Assembly (NCBI GenBank): GCA_050953835.1
Contig: JBMNNH010000018.1
Location: 3,030 to 67,029, forward strand
Direction: 5' to 3'
Length of the DNA stretch: 64,000 bases
DNA from: Acetivibrionales bacterium
Lineage (GTDB): Bacteria; Bacillota; Clostridia; Acetivibrionales; JBMNNH01
Made by a program: the position numbers and the translations under genes
Shown here: positions 19,794-64,000 of the stretch, one piece after another
Layout: every line of letters starts with the position of its first letter
Position numbering within the stretch: the first letter of the stretch is position 1
The notes under the pieces: model-generated
Databases searched by the model: none
Seen by the model: the letters and a program-made list of their open reading frames with translations, nothing else
What the model was told of the DNA's origin: nothing

Positions 19794-22700
19794 CTAGTTT
19801 GCTGCTGTTTTACTCTGAGTTATACCCTCTGCCCCTCTATTTCTTTTTTCCCTTTCTGCGATCTTCTGCTTTAATTCAACTAACAGCCTTGCTTTTAAAT
19901 CTGCCATGTCGTCGCCTGATTTAGAATCTGATTTAGAATCTGATTTAGAATCTGATTCAGAAGCTGTTCCAGCTTTAGTATCATTTTCGGCTGACTCCTC
20001 CAATGCCTCAGCGATTGTCGATGCTTTAAACCTACTGTTAGACAACTTCCACATTCCTAAAAGATCTTCTGCCGTCTTATTGAATTCAAAATCTATTCCT
20101 CCCGACATATCTACCGGTATTGCAACACTTTTCGCAGTTTCAATAGCCTTTTTACCCGCATCAATACCTTTTTGTATTCCGGATGAAACAGCTTTTACCA
20201 CCGGAGAAGAAAGCAAACCTGCATCAAAGTCTATTCTGGATATATAAAGTTTCAATTGCTTTCCCTCCATATCCAGTTCAAGAGCTAACTTGATACTTTT
20301 TCCAAGCAATTTTTTCTTAACAAAGTTCATATTCTGAAGCTGGACCAAAGGTGGATAACTATTTATCCTTGATATAATACTTTCTTTAAATGAGTTAAAA
20401 TTAATATCAAGTATGTTAAAATAGTTTTGGCTTTCTTGTCCTTTTTTAAAAATATTTTTACTTTTTTCATTTCCATAGTAATCCTGCAACAGCCTTATCA
20501 TATCAGTTACGCCTTTATAAACGCGGTCTCCTGCAATAATCTTGTCAGTGTCAAAGCTGTCTTCCAGCCTTACACTCCTTAATACTCCGTCTTTGTAATC
20601 ACTTATAACATCTGCACGCATAAGCCGTTTTGTAACTGTCCTTGTATGCCGGCTGCGCTTTTTTTCCTGTCTCTTGTCATGAATAAGTCTGTGTATTTTA
20701 GAACTGTTATATTCTTCTTTATCTTTATCTCCTGTCAGGCTTTTCTTTAAGTATTCCTCTGCTAATTTGTCATACTGCAGATCTTCAGGAGCTCCCATTT
20801 CAGTAAGTACCTCTTTTATAACATCCCTTGTGATCCTTTTTCTAAAACCCCTTATTGTTGTGGATGATTCGCCGGAAGCAAGCACCATAATACCCGCCTC
20901 AATATCACCAGTAAATGTCTTTCCTTCTTCAATATAGTTTCTTCCGTCCTGTGAAAGTATATTTACAGCTTCGGATTGGCTCTGCTCTGATCTAGAATAA
21001 CCTTCCTTTCCAAAAGCGCCGCCATAAAGCTTGTTTGTAAGCCACCTCGGCATCAGGCGGCTTCTCCTTATATTACTGTATGTACAAAACTTCATTAATT
21101 TTGCGCAGTCTTGTGCCGAACGGGCGCTTGCCTCTGTATAAAAGCCAAACTTCGCACTGGTGCCTGCAGATAGTGCAAAAAGAACCTTAGCAGACAAACC
21201 AACGCCAAATCTATGTTCGGCGGTTACCTTTGATCTTATGTTGTCATCAGATGCTTCCTGCTCAGGATCGTCCAAATCACCTGACCTCTCTCCTTCATAT
21301 TCATAAAACAAACTTATGGTAGCTTCAGTTCCAGGCACATATGGACAGCCAACAGAAAAGGAGCCGCCAAATTTCAAACTACTTGCTTCATTTCCAAGTT
21401 TGTTTGAATACTCATCACCTATTGACATGAAAATACTTCCGGGCTGCCCACCAGATGTAGCTTCATCTTTAATAATTTTATCGCTTATATCAACTTCCTG
21501 TGTCAAAATCTTATTCTGGATGAGATTGTTTGCTTCATTTGCAACAAGGCCCTTTTCACCTACCATTTTTTCAATAAAAATTCTTCTCAGACCTATGCTG
21601 CCTCCTCCCTGCCCCGTATGCCTCTGGAGCCACATCATACATGAGCGGTGGATATTTCCAAGTACATTGACTGCATTCTCCTGTTCACTTTCATCAATAC
21701 TATTCTTAACCCTGTATTTATCATATGCCATAATGTTTTTATCAATATCCTGAAGATACTTGCCTCTTGTGCTTGTTTTACCTGCATAAGTCATTTTTTC
21801 GAATTCATCAATTGTTGGAAGCATTCGGACCTTCTTGGAGGGGCCTTGGGCTTTTTGAGCACCTTCATCATCCTTATCTTTATCATCAAGTTTTTCCAAC
21901 TTTTTGGATAGTTGTTTTATAAGTTCACCAGATTCAACTACTAAATCCTTTACCACAGGGTACCTGTATCTGACGCTGCTTGTCTCATCAAGTTCGTGAA
22001 CAGTTAGCCAGTGTTTCGCAGCAAAATGTACCTTTTTCAATAGGTATAGCATCACATTTTCTTTACCTGTCTTTTCCGCTTCATTGTATTGTTCAAGATA
22101 ATCGTCTATCATTGAAATCAGCTTTCCTCTTTTGCTGGTTATTCCTGCATAAGTCAGTCTTTTGAATTGAGCCGCTGAAAGAAGGCTTCCCCCATACTTT
22201 TCCACTCCTCTGCTCTCCATAGCCACATCAATACTCTTACTGGCATCAAGCTTTTGGATATCTTCATCTGATAGATTAGCCTTCCTTAATAGCATTTCTG
22301 CAGCTAAGCGAACGTCCCTGATAACTGGAAGCCTATACTGGACACTTTTTGTGGAATCATCCTCATGGATCTTAATCCACATGGTTGTTGCAGTATATAA
22401 TTGTTTAAGGATTTCCTGGGTTTTAGGCAGGCCTTTATTCTTATCCGGATCCTTCGACTTATGGTATTGATCTATAAGGTTATCTATTTTTGTTAGATTC
22501 TCACCACGTTTACTGAATTTGCCTGCATCAGTAAGGTACTTGAACAAACTAAGCGAATGTATGTCTTTCATGTACCTGTGCCCCATGCTTCCGAAATCTA
22601 GTTCTTCAGTTTCAGTTTTCTCACCTTTTTCCTTGGTTGCAGTGCCGCTTAATATGTTAAAAGATGCCTGAATAAGCTTCTTTTCGTTTTCTATGGGTCC

Positions 22701-23657
22701 GTCAGATGTAATAAGGCCTGCGATCAGCGGTCTTCTGACAGTTGTAGGTGTGATACCCAGCGTCTTGGCTGTGTAAAGAGTTCCAGAATATGAATGATGA
22801 GCATCCAGCCAGTCTTTGCAGGCTTTCTCCAGATCAAGCAATAGTGTATACTTTCGCTTAGTAACCTCATTATATGTATCTTTATTTAATTCCTTATTTA
22901 ATTTGCTGTCTTCCTTGTTTGCTATATCATATTCCTTATAAACCAACAGAAGCCATCTAAGATATTTGTCCTTACCTTCTATTCTTCTATATTTCATATC
23001 CTCGGAAAGGCTTTTCATCTTTAAAAAACTTATATCATCAATGGACTTTTCAAATTGTTCATAAGGAGGCAGGCCTTTGTTGCCGTCAAAAGTTTTTAAA
23101 GACTTGTCGGTAAAAATGTTCTTATCCTTGCTGTCGTCTGAACGCATCTCGTTTATCGCTGCCCGAAGTTTAATTATCTCGAAGCCTACGGTTTTATTCA
23201 ATTCTACAACAGCCGGCCTTCTTTTCTTTACAGATATAATGTACTTTGTATCCCTATGCTCGGATAGCCAGTTTTTACATGCTTGCTCAATCCTGGATAA
23301 TTTTCTCAATGAAGAAATCTTGCCTTGAACAATACTTACATTGTCCCCGGAGTCTGTCTTGCTTTCGATGATTTCCATGTGACTACTATAGTCCTGCAAG
23401 GCTTCATCTATTTCAGAAAGAAATTTCCCTCTTTTTGCGAATCTTACATAAGTAGCCTTCCTAAAGACTTCGGGGGACAAAATACTGCCTGGTTGAGTTT
23501 CGTCAATGCTGGTTTCCTGTTCAGTCTCCTGTTGTTCCTCTGCCTTTTTTTCTTCGGTTTCTACACTCTGTGATTCTTCATTATGCTCCTTCTGTTCTTC
23601 TAACAGCTCGTCCTTTTTATTCTCCTCCATGGAAATATTTGCAGTTGAATTACCCAT
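19794..23657 (-). CDS. Large repeat-containing protein, candidate CIS cargo/effector (function unknown)
   Basis: Long uninterrupted ORF. ATG at 23657 lies 6 nt after GGAGG. It has an acidic low-complexity N-terminus, five roughly 120-170-aa repeats and a C-terminal half of about 570 aa in which I recognise no catalytic motif. It is adjacent to the CIS ATPase unit. Confidence 0.6.
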   Translation of the reverse strand: MGNSTANISMEENKKDELLEEQKEHNEESQSVETEEKKAEEQQETEQETSIDETQPGSILSPEVFRKATYVRFAKRGKFLSEIDEALQDYSSHMEIIESKTDSGDNVSIVQGKISSLRKLSRIEQACKNWLSEHRDTKYIISVKKRRPAVVELNKTVGFEIIKLRAAINEMRSDDSKDKNIFTDKSLKTFDGNKGLPPYEQFEKSIDDISFLKMKSLSEDMKYRRIEGKDKYLRWLLLVYKEYDIANKEDSKLNKELNKDTYNEVTKRKYTLLLDLEKACKDWLDAHHSYSGTLYTAKTLGITPTTVRRPLIAGLITSDGPIENEKKLIQASFNILSGTATKEKGEKTETEELDFGSMGHRYMKDIHSLSLFKYLTDAGKFSKRGENLTKIDNLIDQYHKSKDPDKNKGLPKTQEILKQLYTATTMWIKIHEDDSTKSVQYRLPVIRDVRLAAEMLLRKANLSDEDIQKLDASKSIDVAMESRGVEKYGGSLLSAAQFKRLTYAGITSKRGKLISMIDDYLEQYNEAEKTGKENVMLYLLKKVHFAAKHWLTVHELDETSSVRYRYPVVKDLVVESGELIKQLSKKLEKLDDKDKDDEGAQKAQGPSKKVRMLPTIDEFEKMTYAGKTSTRGKYLQDIDKNIMAYDKYRVKNSIDESEQENAVNVLGNIHRSCMMWLQRHTGQGGGSIGLRRIFIEKMVGEKGLVANEANNLIQNKILTQEVDISDKIIKDEATSGGQPGSIFMSIGDEYSNKLGNEASSLKFGGSFSVGCPYVPGTEATISLFYEYEGERSGDLDDPEQEASDDNIRSKVTAEHRFGVGLSAKVLFALSAGTSAKFGFYTEASARSAQDCAKLMKFCTYSNIRRSRLMPRWLTNKLYGGAFGKEGYSRSEQSQSEAVNILSQDGRNYIEEGKTFTGDIEAGIMVLASGESSTTIRGFRKRITRDVIKEVLTEMGAPEDLQYDKLAEEYLKKSLTGDKDKEEYNSSKIHRLIHDKRQEKKRSRHTRTVTKRLMRADVISDYKDGVLRSVRLEDSFDTDKIIAGDRVYKGVTDMIRLLQDYYGNEKSKNIFKKGQESQNYFNILDINFNSFKESIISRINSYPPLVQLQNMNFVKKKLLGKSIKLALELDMEGKQLKLYISRIDFDAGLLSSPVVKAVSSGIQKGIDAGKKAIETAKSVAIPVDMSGGIDFEFNKTAEDLLGMWKLSNSRFKASTIAEALEESAENDTKAGTASESDSKSDSKSDSKSGDDMADLKARLLVELKQKIAEREKRNRGAEGITQSKTAAN
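19917..19964 (-). repeat. In-frame 12-bp tandem repeat (TGATTTAGAATC x3 plus one degenerate unit)
   Basis: Read directly. It encodes SDSK SDSK SDSK near the C-terminus of the 1287-aa protein. Confidence 0.9.
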
Positions 23658-23681
23658 CACAAGCCTCCGTTTTAATAATAA

Positions 23682-63545: not shown

Positions 63546-63593
63546 TTACTCCATCAGTCATAAAGGACTAATGTAAGTCGGCTGATGGAGTAA
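63546..63593 (-). other. Perfect 12-bp stem hairpin in the 104-nt gap after the first tube gene
   Basis: TTACTCCATCAG (63546-63557) and CTGATGGAGTAA (63582-63593) are perfectly complementary. On the minus-strand RNA they are followed by UAUUUGGCAUAUUUAUGU. Confidence 0.5.
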
Positions 63594-63608
63594 TAAAGCA
63601 TTCATGCC

Positions 63609-64000
63609 TTATTCTGTAGGTTCTTCTCCCGCAACAGGAGCACCCTGGTCAATTCTGTCCAGTCCTTCATGCGCAATTTCAAGACTTTCGACCGCAACTT
63701 CAGAACCAAGTGCATTAAAATCAGGAGCAGTATACCTTACAGGCCATGCATTGATTAGTTCCCATTGAGGGCCGTCATTTCCGTCATCTGTTATAAGTGT
63801 TATGGTTATGGTTTTTCTAGTGATACCGGTAGGATTCTGGGTATTTGTACCGGCTACTGTTGCCATCCAGTCAAACATTTCACGGTCACTAACTATTCCC
63901 CATTTCAATGTTACGTTCCCGTATTTTGATAATCCAGGAAGCTTTCTTGGCGTATTCCTTAGGTCATCACCTTCCCTGTATTCAATAACATCCACTGATG
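63609..64000 (-). CDS. Tail tube protein (T4 gp19-like, Afp1-like), N-terminus beyond window end
   Basis: VIEYREGDDLRNTPRKLPGLSKYGNVTLKWGIVSDREMFDW...WPVRYTAPDFNALGSEVAVESLEIAHEGL is the conserved tube pattern. The reading frame stays open to position 64000. Confidence 0.85.
   Translation of the reverse strand, partial: SVDVIEYREGDDLRNTPRKLPGLSKYGNVTLKWGIVSDREMFDWMATVAGTNTQNPTGITRKTITITLITDDGNDGPQWELINAWPVRYTAPDFNALGSEVAVESLEIAHEGLDRIDQGAPVAGEEPTE

Follow-up and report, generated by a model that had tools for sequence, protein, structure and literature searches.

A contractile injection system locus of an Acetivibrionales bacterium with a conserved module of membrane and cell-wall genes and a catalytically degenerate cyclase-type receptor

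The DNA considered here (the window; 64,000 nucleotides of contig JBMNNH010000018.1, assembly GCA_050953835.1) comes from a metagenome-assembled genome (MAG) of an Acetivibrionales bacterium (Clostridia) and carries a contractile injection system (CIS) interspersed with genes for membrane, wall and secreted proteins. Open reading frame (ORF) listing and Pfam/NCBIfam scans place the CIS and accessory genes at 19794-64000, about 44 kb that start directly after cotJB (18858-19130) and cotJC (19082-19729) of the left flank; an initial annotation, made from the letters of the window, had likewise placed more than 44 kb of CIS and accessory DNA after cotJC. The genes are laid out in three units: unit 1 (48254-64000, minus strand), unit 2 (27866-46894, minus strand) and unit 3 (19794-27906).

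The DNA to the right of the window was read in contigs L001-L005 (L numbers denote the contigs and loci compared), which are near-identical to the window at 99-100% protein identity and place the end of the CIS locus about 2.3 kb beyond the right edge. In these contigs the tube gene that the edge cuts is complete (161 aa) and is preceded by a 595-aa Phage_sheath_1 gene; beyond the sheath gene (L001-L003) lie genes for a YhcN/YlaJ spore lipoprotein and a DksA-type zinc finger protein, PNP_UDP, a DHQS-like gene and IleRS. The left flank contains proC, the gerA operon, dpaAB, an M16 peptidase gene, pnp and cotJ. No capsid/head, portal, terminase/packaging or lysis genes are present on either flank (right, in L001-L003; left, in the window), and no holin or endolysin was found within the locus. 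The initial annotation had named phage genes to the right of 64000 as the finding that would speak against a CIS; tube, sheath, housekeeping and spore genes lie there instead. Because the flanking DNA carries housekeeping and spore genes and no head, packaging or lysis genes, 19794-64000 is a true CIS locus and not a prophage tail. The features that distinguish a CIS from a phage tail or tailocin are also present, namely a DUF4255 cap, a winged-helix AAA+ ATPase, a DUF4280 gene and CIS_tube. In base composition the region is no different from its flanks and shows no sign of recent horizontal transfer, so the label "accessory DNA" refers to gene content only.

Unit 1 is the structural core; as annotated initially, and now by Pfam/NCBIfam scans, it lacks the cap and PAAR genes. 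Read in the direction of transcription, it begins with the gp19-type tube gene at the window edge (63609-64000), followed by genes for a 123-aa protein with a C-terminal zinc-ribbon-like motif (63133-63504), the 60-aa DUF6760 protein (62951-63133; E 2e-18) and a second gp19-type tube protein or tube adaptor (62499-62933). A 996-aa protein without a family match (59493-62483) is a putative tape measure, judged from size and position. CIS_tube (58818-59459) and a VgrG split into two genes, each matching one half of VgrG_rel, come next; these are the hub (57687-58796) and the spike (56944-57690), with a Phage_base_V match of 9e-27. The baseplate wedge is encoded by gp25 (56479-56907), two Baseplate_J genes (53426-56479, 1017 aa; 51268-53421, 717 aa) and Tail_P2_I/CIS12 (50068-51246; NCBIfam CIS12_fam), with a TIGR02243 match among the genes at 50068-56907; NCBIfam CIS5_fam and CIS1_fam match within 58818-64000. 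The last gene of the unit (48254-50059) encodes a 601-aa protein in the Cis13 position, of which residues 9-148 match CIS13_fam (2e-31), the N-terminal baseplate-anchor domain and its one recognisable part, and which has full-length homologues in many loci (29-62% identity).

Three structural genes lie outside unit 1. The cap or tube/sheath terminator (DUF4255, Pvc16/Afp16; 35639-36226, minus strand; Pvc16_N 3e-33; 56 homologues) and the PAAR-like spike tip (DUF4280, IglG-like; 34413-34799, minus strand; PF14107 4e-37, NCBIfam IglG 7e-18) belong to unit 2. The CIS AAA+ ATPase of Afp15/Cis15 type, with an N-terminal winged helix, is encoded in unit 3 (25711-27906, plus strand; PF22977 1.2e-22, PF00004 2e-34), and its homologues adjoin the cap gene in nearly all related loci. 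Sheath and inner tube, gp25/gp6/gp7-type baseplate, VgrG spike, PAAR-like tip, cap and ATPase, the parts by which a CIS is recognized, are thus all accounted for, and with the Cis13-like protein the core is complete, the sheath lying just off the window.

Two observations concern the small proteins and composition of the core. No small protein of the clade is better conserved than the 123-aa one (63-73% identity between genera), which pairs with DUF6760 between the two tube genes, the usual place of tail assembly chaperones. The guanine-plus-cytosine fraction falls to 0.306 at 60001-62000, inside the tape-measure-sized gene, versus 0.35-0.40 elsewhere in the region.

Unit 2 is a tight minus-strand string running from 46894 down to 27866. 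The initial annotation had counted 13 co-directional genes; there are 12, and a plus-strand insertion sequence (IS) had been overlooked. In order of transcription the string encodes a HAMP receptor, a MORN protein, a 682-aa TolC-fold protein, a 957-aa Cu_amine_oxidN1 protein, the cap, a 260-aa protein, the DUF4280 PAAR-like protein, a 366-aa membrane protein, a PF04392 solute-binding protein (SBP), a fusion of a sensor-like part with a major facilitator superfamily (MFS) transporter, a GNAT protein and an alanine racemase. The contents listed in the initial annotation, including HAMP receptor, MORN, coiled coil, SBP, sensor-MFS fusion and two small-molecule enzymes, agree with the family matches. 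Successive gaps, from the receptor end, are 45, -1, the IS, 1, -4, 60, 7, -4, 18 and 3 nt; the cap gene starts 1 nt past the stop of the coiled-coil gene and is overlapped by 4 nt by the 260-aa gene. Scans for sigma-70 promoters and terminators did not rise usefully above shuffled background, and the sequence therefore does not fix the operon boundaries.

The IS (1349 bp; 39127-40475, plus strand) lies between the TolC-fold and coiled-coil genes. It encodes a 365-aa DDE_Tnp_IS240 transposase with an InsA zinc ribbon (39175-40272), has terminal inverted repeats of 17 nt, and a 9-bp stretch of target sequence, CAATACCAT, is duplicated on its two sides (39118-39126 and 40476-40484). The near-identical contig L008 has an empty site with a 37-nt spacer, and other near-identical contigs (L006, L007, L010) break exactly at this position, so the insertion is recent. 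In a further near-identical contig (L009; JGI 3300061316) IS fragments flank a piece of the TolC-fold gene, and an inverted DUF4280/366-aa gene segment follows a truncated copy of the 260-aa gene, a pattern suggestive of rearrangement of the locus by the IS among members of the population.

The first gene of unit 2 (44126-46894, minus strand) encodes a 922-aa receptor with four transmembrane helices, in which a beta-propeller, a Cache/PAS-like domain, a HAMP domain (8e-9), a cyclase domain and TPR follow one another. Its C-terminal 335 residues match class III cyclases of the PDB (E 2e-9, phmmer), with the TPR after them. The AlphaFold2 (AF2) model, built from a 36-sequence alignment (predicted local distance difference test, pLDDT, 83), predicts an all-beta ectodomain at 47-329, a long helix with an alpha/beta Cache/PAS-like ectodomain at 372-550, and a cytoplasmic part of HAMP, cyclase domain and three TPR-like helices. 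In Foldseek comparisons the cyclase domain matches Cya2, CyaC and CyaB at a target TM-score (TMt) of 0.75-0.82 and a root-mean-square deviation of 2.3-3.5 Å, and the first ectodomain matches seven-bladed propellers at TMt of about 0.55; sequence searches of the PDB gave nothing usable for the two ectodomains.

The initial annotation had called this protein a HAMP-cyclase-like receptor. The class III cyclase fold is confirmed, but the catalytic residues are degenerate. Aligned to Cya2, the receptor has K, T, H and R at the positions of the two metal-binding aspartates, the asparagine and the arginine. Both aspartates are absent from all 11 CIS-linked homologues first aligned, and the asparagine is usually replaced too. 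A search that yielded 2003 cluster representatives at E<=1e-30 shows both states of the domain: among the best 148 of the 2003, 53 keep the DDNR set and about 95 are degenerate. Catalytic state and gene neighbourhood were tabulated together for metagenome loci whose flanks total 8 kb or more, CIS genes being counted within 10 kb. Degenerate receptors stand beside CIS genes in 36 loci, intact DDNR receptors stand without CIS genes in 17, and no locus joins an intact receptor to a CIS; it weakens this tally that the locus counts include near-duplicates, the degenerate CIS-linked receptors amounting to about 15 distinct variants. In each of the three loci with a degenerate receptor and no CIS genes, the contig ends on the upstream side.

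Since neither metal-binding aspartate is left, the usual synthesis of cAMP or cGMP is impossible for the receptor, and it should not be filed as an active cyclase. It shares with HAMP-linked class III adenylyl/guanylyl cyclase receptors the order of transmembrane segment, HAMP and cyclase-homology domain, and differs from them in the replaced aspartates and the conserved TPR appended at the C-terminus. Its output surface is likely to be the conserved TPR together with the dimeric cyclase fold. A palindrome with a perfect 14-bp stem (TCCAAAAGACAAAA-TTTA-TTTTGTCTTTTGGA; 46944-46975) lies in the promoter region between the divergent receptor and LysM genes and may be an operator. It occurs once only in the window and is absent upstream of the sheath gene (L001), and a role as shared operator is rejected on these grounds.

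The MORN protein (42545-44080, minus strand; 511 aa; MORN 8e-19, with MORN matches in the PDB) is a single-pass membrane protein with a basic N-terminal tail and a transmembrane helix at 77-95. Each of its 49 homologues has one transmembrane helix and a similar length, and the N-side is more net positive than the C-side in 48 of the 49 (+3 to +13 versus -2 to +5), so that by the positive-inside rule a short basic tail is predicted inside the cell and the MORN repeats outside. The gene adjoins the receptor gene in essentially all CIS-linked loci, the proteins being 28-43% identical.

Next in the string is a 682-aa secreted protein (40497-42545, minus strand) with two C-terminal beta-sandwich domains (AF2, pLDDT 76). 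The best 44 Foldseek matches of its model in the PDB are all TolC, OprM, CusC or NodT (E 1e-7 to 3e-4, TMt 0.5-0.6), and the two-repeat helical tunnel fold of TolC is present in the model. At the sequence level the OEP family is matched at E 1.5 (9 bits, against a cut-off of 22) and NodT at E 2e-4 (20 bits, against 210), sequence searches of the PDB gave nothing usable, and one homologue carries PF02321. Since membership in OEP is not reached and the putative barrel strands are poorly predicted, the initial label "TolC-like" is right for the fold and does not extend to sequence membership or to a membrane beta-barrel. The protein shares with TolC/OprM the long alpha-hairpin tunnel of two repeats; it differs in its two extra beta-sandwich domains, in a host that is presumed monoderm and has no outer membrane, and in that no adaptor or pump partner was found. 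Syntenic homologues occur in L012, L088, L092-L095, L139 and L115, and distant ones in the human-gut type of locus represented by L097 and described below.

Two further proteins belong to the envelope set. A 957-aa secreted protein (36228-39101, minus strand) has an N-terminal hydrophobic signal, a long helical, coiled-coil region and a C-terminal Cu_amine_oxidN1 (CuAO-N) domain (PF07833 5e-13), with syntenic homologues in L088 and L092-L095. Between units 1 and 2, on the plus strand (47060-48211), lies the gene for a bitopic 383-aa LysM protein (LysM 6e-7), which has a 240-aa cytoplasmic domain, a transmembrane helix at 247-265 and an external LysM domain; PDB sequence searches gave nothing usable for the cytoplasmic domain. 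Homologues of the LysM gene are found on either strand between the Cis13-like and receptor genes in L012 and L092-L095.

Relatives of the locus were sought in public data from three starting points: the cap gene, the 682-aa protein and the receptor. From the cap gene, 80 genome loci were compared with all window proteins by tblastn/blastp. The canonical order of the clade, in Paenibacillus, Cohnella, Brevibacillus and others, is ATPase, cap, 260-aa protein, sheath, tube, 123-aa protein, tube. The 260-aa protein (34860-35642, minus strand; weak CarboxypepD_reg matches) follows the cap gene in the window, and 53 homologues lie directly after the cap across Paenibacillus, Cohnella, Brevibacillus and Clostridia. 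Receptor, MORN and DUF4280 genes stand together beside CIS genes in 14 of the 80 loci, from Marinisporobacter, Anaeromicrobium, Wukongibacter, a Bacillota MAG, at least five Brevibacillus species, Lachnospiraceae, Eubacteriaceae and other Clostridia. L024 and L089 have DUF4280 and no receptor; L024 is also without MORN, and the contig of L089 ends right after DUF4280. In all accessory-bearing loci the PAAR-like protein is 48-76% identical to that of the window.

The 682-aa protein yielded 11 homologues, of which four were looked up on long contigs by tblastn. In these four lineages (27-57% identity for the 682-aa protein) a single co-directional array encodes Baseplate_J, P2_I, the Cis13-like protein, LysM, receptor, MORN, TolC-fold, CuAO-N, cap, 260-aa protein and DUF4280, and the ATPase follows in three of the four. 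The fourth, L094, has DUF4280 before the cap, an opposite-strand acetyltransferase gene between them and no ATPase detected. The three-unit layout of the initial annotation is present in the window, with the ATPase in the third unit, but it is derived: cap and ATPase normally lead the core in relatives, and relatives have an array that runs from baseplate to ATPase.

From the receptor, an alignment of 10 sequences was used to scan metagenomes, and the 79 loci found were compared by tblastn. A human-gut type (L097-L106 and others) has VgrG, gp25, two Baseplate_J genes, P2_I, the Cis13-like protein, receptor, MORN and then a 435-aa protein that is a distant homologue of the 682-aa family (profile, E 1e-5 to 1e-7), followed in the order of the window by cap, 260-aa protein, DUF4280, a homologue of the 366-aa membrane protein, SBP and sensor-MFS (22-56% identity). 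L097-L106, L111-L114, L118, L119, L121, L123, L133, L138 and L154 have this CIS type with the short TolC-fold homologue; several of the contigs are labelled human-gut metagenome, and they reach up to 320 kb. L108 and L110 have a different arrangement, with the Cis13-like gene (L108 only), SBP, sensor-MFS, GNAT and alanine racemase, an opposite-strand MORN gene, and then receptor and DUF4280, so both small-molecule enzymes recur, elsewhere in the order.

Receptor, MORN and the PAAR-like gene thus lie beside CIS genes in at least 15 divergent lineages of Clostridia, Brevibacillus and human-gut contigs, and the TolC-fold, CuAO-N and LysM proteins and the cassette of SBP, sensor-MFS, GNAT and racemase recur in subsets of them in differing orders. 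The possibility raised with the initial annotation, that homologous CIS loci never carry such genes, does not hold. That the genes stay together across Bacillota classes while their order is shuffled speaks strongly for functional coupling, and the accessory genes are conserved partners of the CIS core; the cassette is a recurrent but not universal companion.

It is an evenly balanced question whether the following reading is correct: the locus encodes a chromosomal CIS, of a clade specific to endospore-forming Bacillota, in which a membrane and cell-wall module carried by one sub-clade docks or triggers the particle. The docking or triggering step is proposed from domain content and synteny. 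The receptor and the MORN, LysM, TolC-fold and CuAO-N coiled-coil proteins would form a platform that spans the envelope, in which the propeller and Cache ectodomains would sense something in the wall zone and the change would be relayed via HAMP to the dead cyclase dimer and the TPR. The only sizeable cytoplasmic faces of such a platform would be the HAMP-pseudo-cyclase-TPR dimer, the cytoplasmic domain of the LysM protein and the MORN tail. These faces might recruit or release a particle built in the cytoplasm, making firing localized and conditional, and the shot could be directed outward into a neighbour or at the producer's own membrane as regulated death. By its dimensions a TolC tunnel would not admit a CIS tube; the TolC-fold protein is therefore no simple conduit, and a wall anchor or spacer is the more likely role.

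Several points weigh against this reading, apart from the redundancy of the locus counts and the narrow tunnel. A physical link between the accessory proteins and the particle is predicted from gene neighbourhood and domain content, and the topologies are predictions from hydrophobicity and the positive-inside rule. The structure predicted for the TolC-fold protein is only moderately good, with pLDDT <50 in the putative barrel strands. In most Paenibacillus and Cohnella relatives no receptor or MORN gene lies upstream of the cap over some 7-10 kb, the comparison having covered this DNA and not that after the baseplate genes, and the module may thus belong to a sub-clade only. In this genome, moreover, the IS stands between the upstream genes of the string and the cap and PAAR genes, so that the string is no single intact operon; the single operon of cap, PAAR, envelope and signalling genes proposed in the initial annotation fails here, and the cap and PAAR genes may be less well expressed as a result. 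The anchor domain of the Cis13-position protein also fits a released, fibre-bearing extracellular CIS (eCIS), as argued for Bacillota by a 2026 catalogue that describes, for Bacillota and Actinobacteriota, tail fibres that have an anchor domain in common (PMC12923769).

That last point belongs to an alternative that is unlikely and still deserves weight, namely an ordinary Afp/PVC-like eCIS, released by lysis and binding its target via the Cis13-position protein, with membrane proteins that only regulate expression or the timing of lysis. Its core gene set would be the one found, including tape-measure-sized gene, ATPase and cap; the CIS13_fam N-terminus fits the tail fibres that this catalogue describes, and the receptor has genuine sensor-type ectodomains and HAMP. 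However, family scans found no DNA-binding or kinase output in the receptor or the locus, the cyclase is dead in every CIS-linked copy and therefore provides no second messenger, and the locus has yielded no gene for release by holin or endolysin. The 601-aa protein is conserved over its full length, unlike fast-evolving receptor-binding fibres, and in most lineages the cap, PAAR-like and ATPase genes are interleaved with the envelope genes.

Docking or triggering by the module is also to be set against the improbable view that the MORN protein and its neighbours are CIS cargo toxins or immunity proteins. In the eCIS catalogue of Geller et al. (PMC8213781), which lists two Firmicutes toxins, MORN (PF02493) is 14-fold enriched in eCIS loci and filed as a eukaryote-like domain among putative toxin domains, and HAMP is not enriched; the MORN gene also adjoins the PAAR-like gene in Brevibacillus-type loci. 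Against cargo stand the uniform architecture of the MORN homologues (one transmembrane helix, basic N-side, similar length) and their conservation in a fixed partnership with the receptor, where effectors vary. Neither Pfam, NCBIfam nor the PDB gives a recognisable toxin domain for the MORN protein, and the hydrophobic N-terminal signals of the TolC-fold and coiled-coil proteins misfit loading into a cytoplasmic particle.

It is very improbable that the envelope genes are an unrelated surface or transport system and neighbours of the CIS by chance. No accessory protein has a known CIS function, and SBP, MFS, GNAT and racemase do resemble a unit for transport and modification of small molecules; but the linkage recurs across the divergent lineages of two Bacillota classes in different gene orders, the split between degenerate receptors with a CIS and intact ones without is complete, and accessory genes have CIS structural genes on both sides. 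A prophage tail module or R-type tailocin is hardly credible, for although many core genes match phage tail families (gp19, gp25, Baseplate_J, P2_I), neither side carries capsid, terminase, portal or lysis genes and the four CIS hallmarks named above are present.

Comparison with described systems places the locus as a known machine type with a conserved accessory module that was not found described. Serratia Afp and Photorhabdus PVC have the same core parts list and a large cargo-like protein with a disordered N-terminus nearby. In the window, by contrast, the cap, the PAAR-like protein and the ATPase are encoded away from the core string and VgrG by two genes, and five conserved membrane, wall or secreted proteins, none of them in Afp or PVC, are interleaved with the structural genes. 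In Streptomyces coelicolor the cluster-encoded membrane adaptor CisA is needed for contraction and function and is absent from purified particles, and CIS firing is tied to stress (PMC12237407). The likeness, a Gram-positive host with a conserved membrane protein in the CIS cluster, is one of concept; CisA is a single bitopic protein, whereas the window encodes a multi-protein set of receptor, MORN, LysM, TolC-fold and coiled-coil proteins. The Anabaena CIS is anchored to thylakoids via cluster-encoded baseplate extensions and is linked to stress-induced lysis (PMC8894136); it has no receptor, MORN or TolC-fold partner.

With type VI secretion systems (T6SSs), which have a membrane complex and gating of the TagQRST/PpkA type and include T6SS subtype iv (T6SSiv), the proposed system shares the concept of an envelope-docked, signal-fired machine, docking being suggested here by the genes; CisA and the T6SS membrane complex are its nearest analogues. 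The PAAR-like protein resembles Francisella IglG, and for T6SSiv a membrane-anchoring role has been suggested for a protein in the Cis13 position (PMC12210884). Unlike a T6SS, the window has a tape-measure-sized gene and a cap, and the host is presumed monoderm; no TssJLM, ClpV, kinase or phosphatase genes are among the Pfam/NCBIfam matches of the window genes at 19794-64000. More speculatively, and with more doubt than expectation, monoderm endospore-formers may have a trans-envelope, signal-gated CIS, an analogue of the T6SS, whose firing complex of pseudo-cyclase, MORN, LysM, TolC-fold and coiled-coil proteins would act through the thick wall. If so, it would be a CIS mode distinct from eCIS, T6SS, thylakoid-anchored CIS and the cytoplasmic CIS of Streptomyces.

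No description of a CIS with HAMP, with MORN as membrane partner, with a TolC-like protein or in endospore formers was found in the literature searched, many subscription papers being beyond reach; the initial remark that the accessory set was unfamiliar from described systems stands to that extent. Little is settled about how CISs work in Gram-positive bacteria, whose cells have a thick wall and lack an outer membrane, Streptomyces alone having been studied in depth. The locus points to a different and much richer accessory set, whose spread includes cultivable Brevibacillus and human-gut Clostridia; a 2025 metagenome survey found human-gut CISs almost only in Bacteroidota (PMC12210884). The link between loss of cyclase residues and a CIS neighbourhood is a clean marker for finding such systems, the receptor is a clear example of a signalling enzyme turned structural or adaptor protein, and the proposed docking or triggering is directly testable by genetics and cryo-electron tomography in available strains.

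Unit 3 also encodes a candidate cargo or effector, a 1288-aa protein (19794-23660, minus strand) without a match in Pfam, NCBIfam or the PDB. Its N-terminus is acidic and disordered (19 D/E among the first 60 residues), five repeats of about 125-150 aa end in WLxxH at 141, 294, 438, 561 and 687, and a unique C-terminal region of about 600 aa follows; an SDSK-rich acidic tail lies near the C-terminus. The next gene (23682-24581, minus strand) encodes a 299-aa, chaperone-like YbjN protein of two halves (PF10722 E 1.8e-7; weak CesT_Tir_1 match), whose 150-aa homologues align to residues 32-145. L013, L014 and L019 have the order DUF4280, variable large ORF, YbjN, ATPase, and YbjN is also present in L092. 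Such adjacency of a large ORF and YbjN is typical of effector-chaperone pairs, and the 1288-aa protein and its YbjN-type partner are for that reason, from their sequences, likely cargo and chaperone. A 341-aa protein (24689-25714, plus strand), the stop of which overlaps the ATPase start, has no family match and no homologue in the compared loci.

The remaining genes of unit 2 lie on the minus strand beyond the PAAR-like gene. The 366-aa protein with four transmembrane helices (Sens366; 33305-34405) follows PAAR also in L097-type loci and is paralogous to the sensor-like N-half of the MFS fusion, as family cross-matches show; the two share a plan of transmembrane helix, ectodomain, two transmembrane helices, second domain and further transmembrane helix, and both are kept in L012 and L097-type loci. 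The SBP (32148-33308; PF04392, ABC_sub_bind 8e-14), secreted or anchored, is 61% identical in L012 and 27-43% in L097-L119, L108 and L110. The 786-aa sensor-MFS fusion (29769-32129; MFS_1 1e-28) joins a sensor-like N-half with two ectodomains to an MFS part of 12 transmembrane helices and has homologues in L012, L097-type loci, L108, L110 and L095. A GNAT-family acyltransferase (28995-29765; Acetyltransf_1 5e-5) has homologues in L012, L108 and L110, and the alanine racemase that ends the string (27866-29062; Ala_racemase_N 3e-48, Ala_racemase_C 7e-22) recurs with GNAT, MFS and SBP beside CIS genes in L108 and L110 (32-33% identity).

In L095 (17985-21870) the ATPase gene is followed by an LPG_synthase_C gene (the C-domain of MprF) and then by a gene for a 990-aa MFS protein, which shares 27% identity with the window fusion over the MFS part. 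An MprF-like lipid aminoacylation unit is nevertheless rejected for the window: its GNAT has no significant similarity to LPG_synthase_C of L095, and the PDB gave no lead.

The surroundings of the locus are rich in sporulation and germination genes, with the gerA operon, dpaA/dpaB and cotJB/JC on the left (window 2730-19729) and yhcN/ylaJ on the right (L001 1-4426), and gerA also adjoins the CIS locus in the relative L093. The start of the racemase gene is uncertain, a TTG at 29062 giving 398 aa where the gene callers chose a 384-aa form. At the other end of that gene, the racemase and ATPase genes converge, with 3' ends that overlap by 41 nt (27866-27906).

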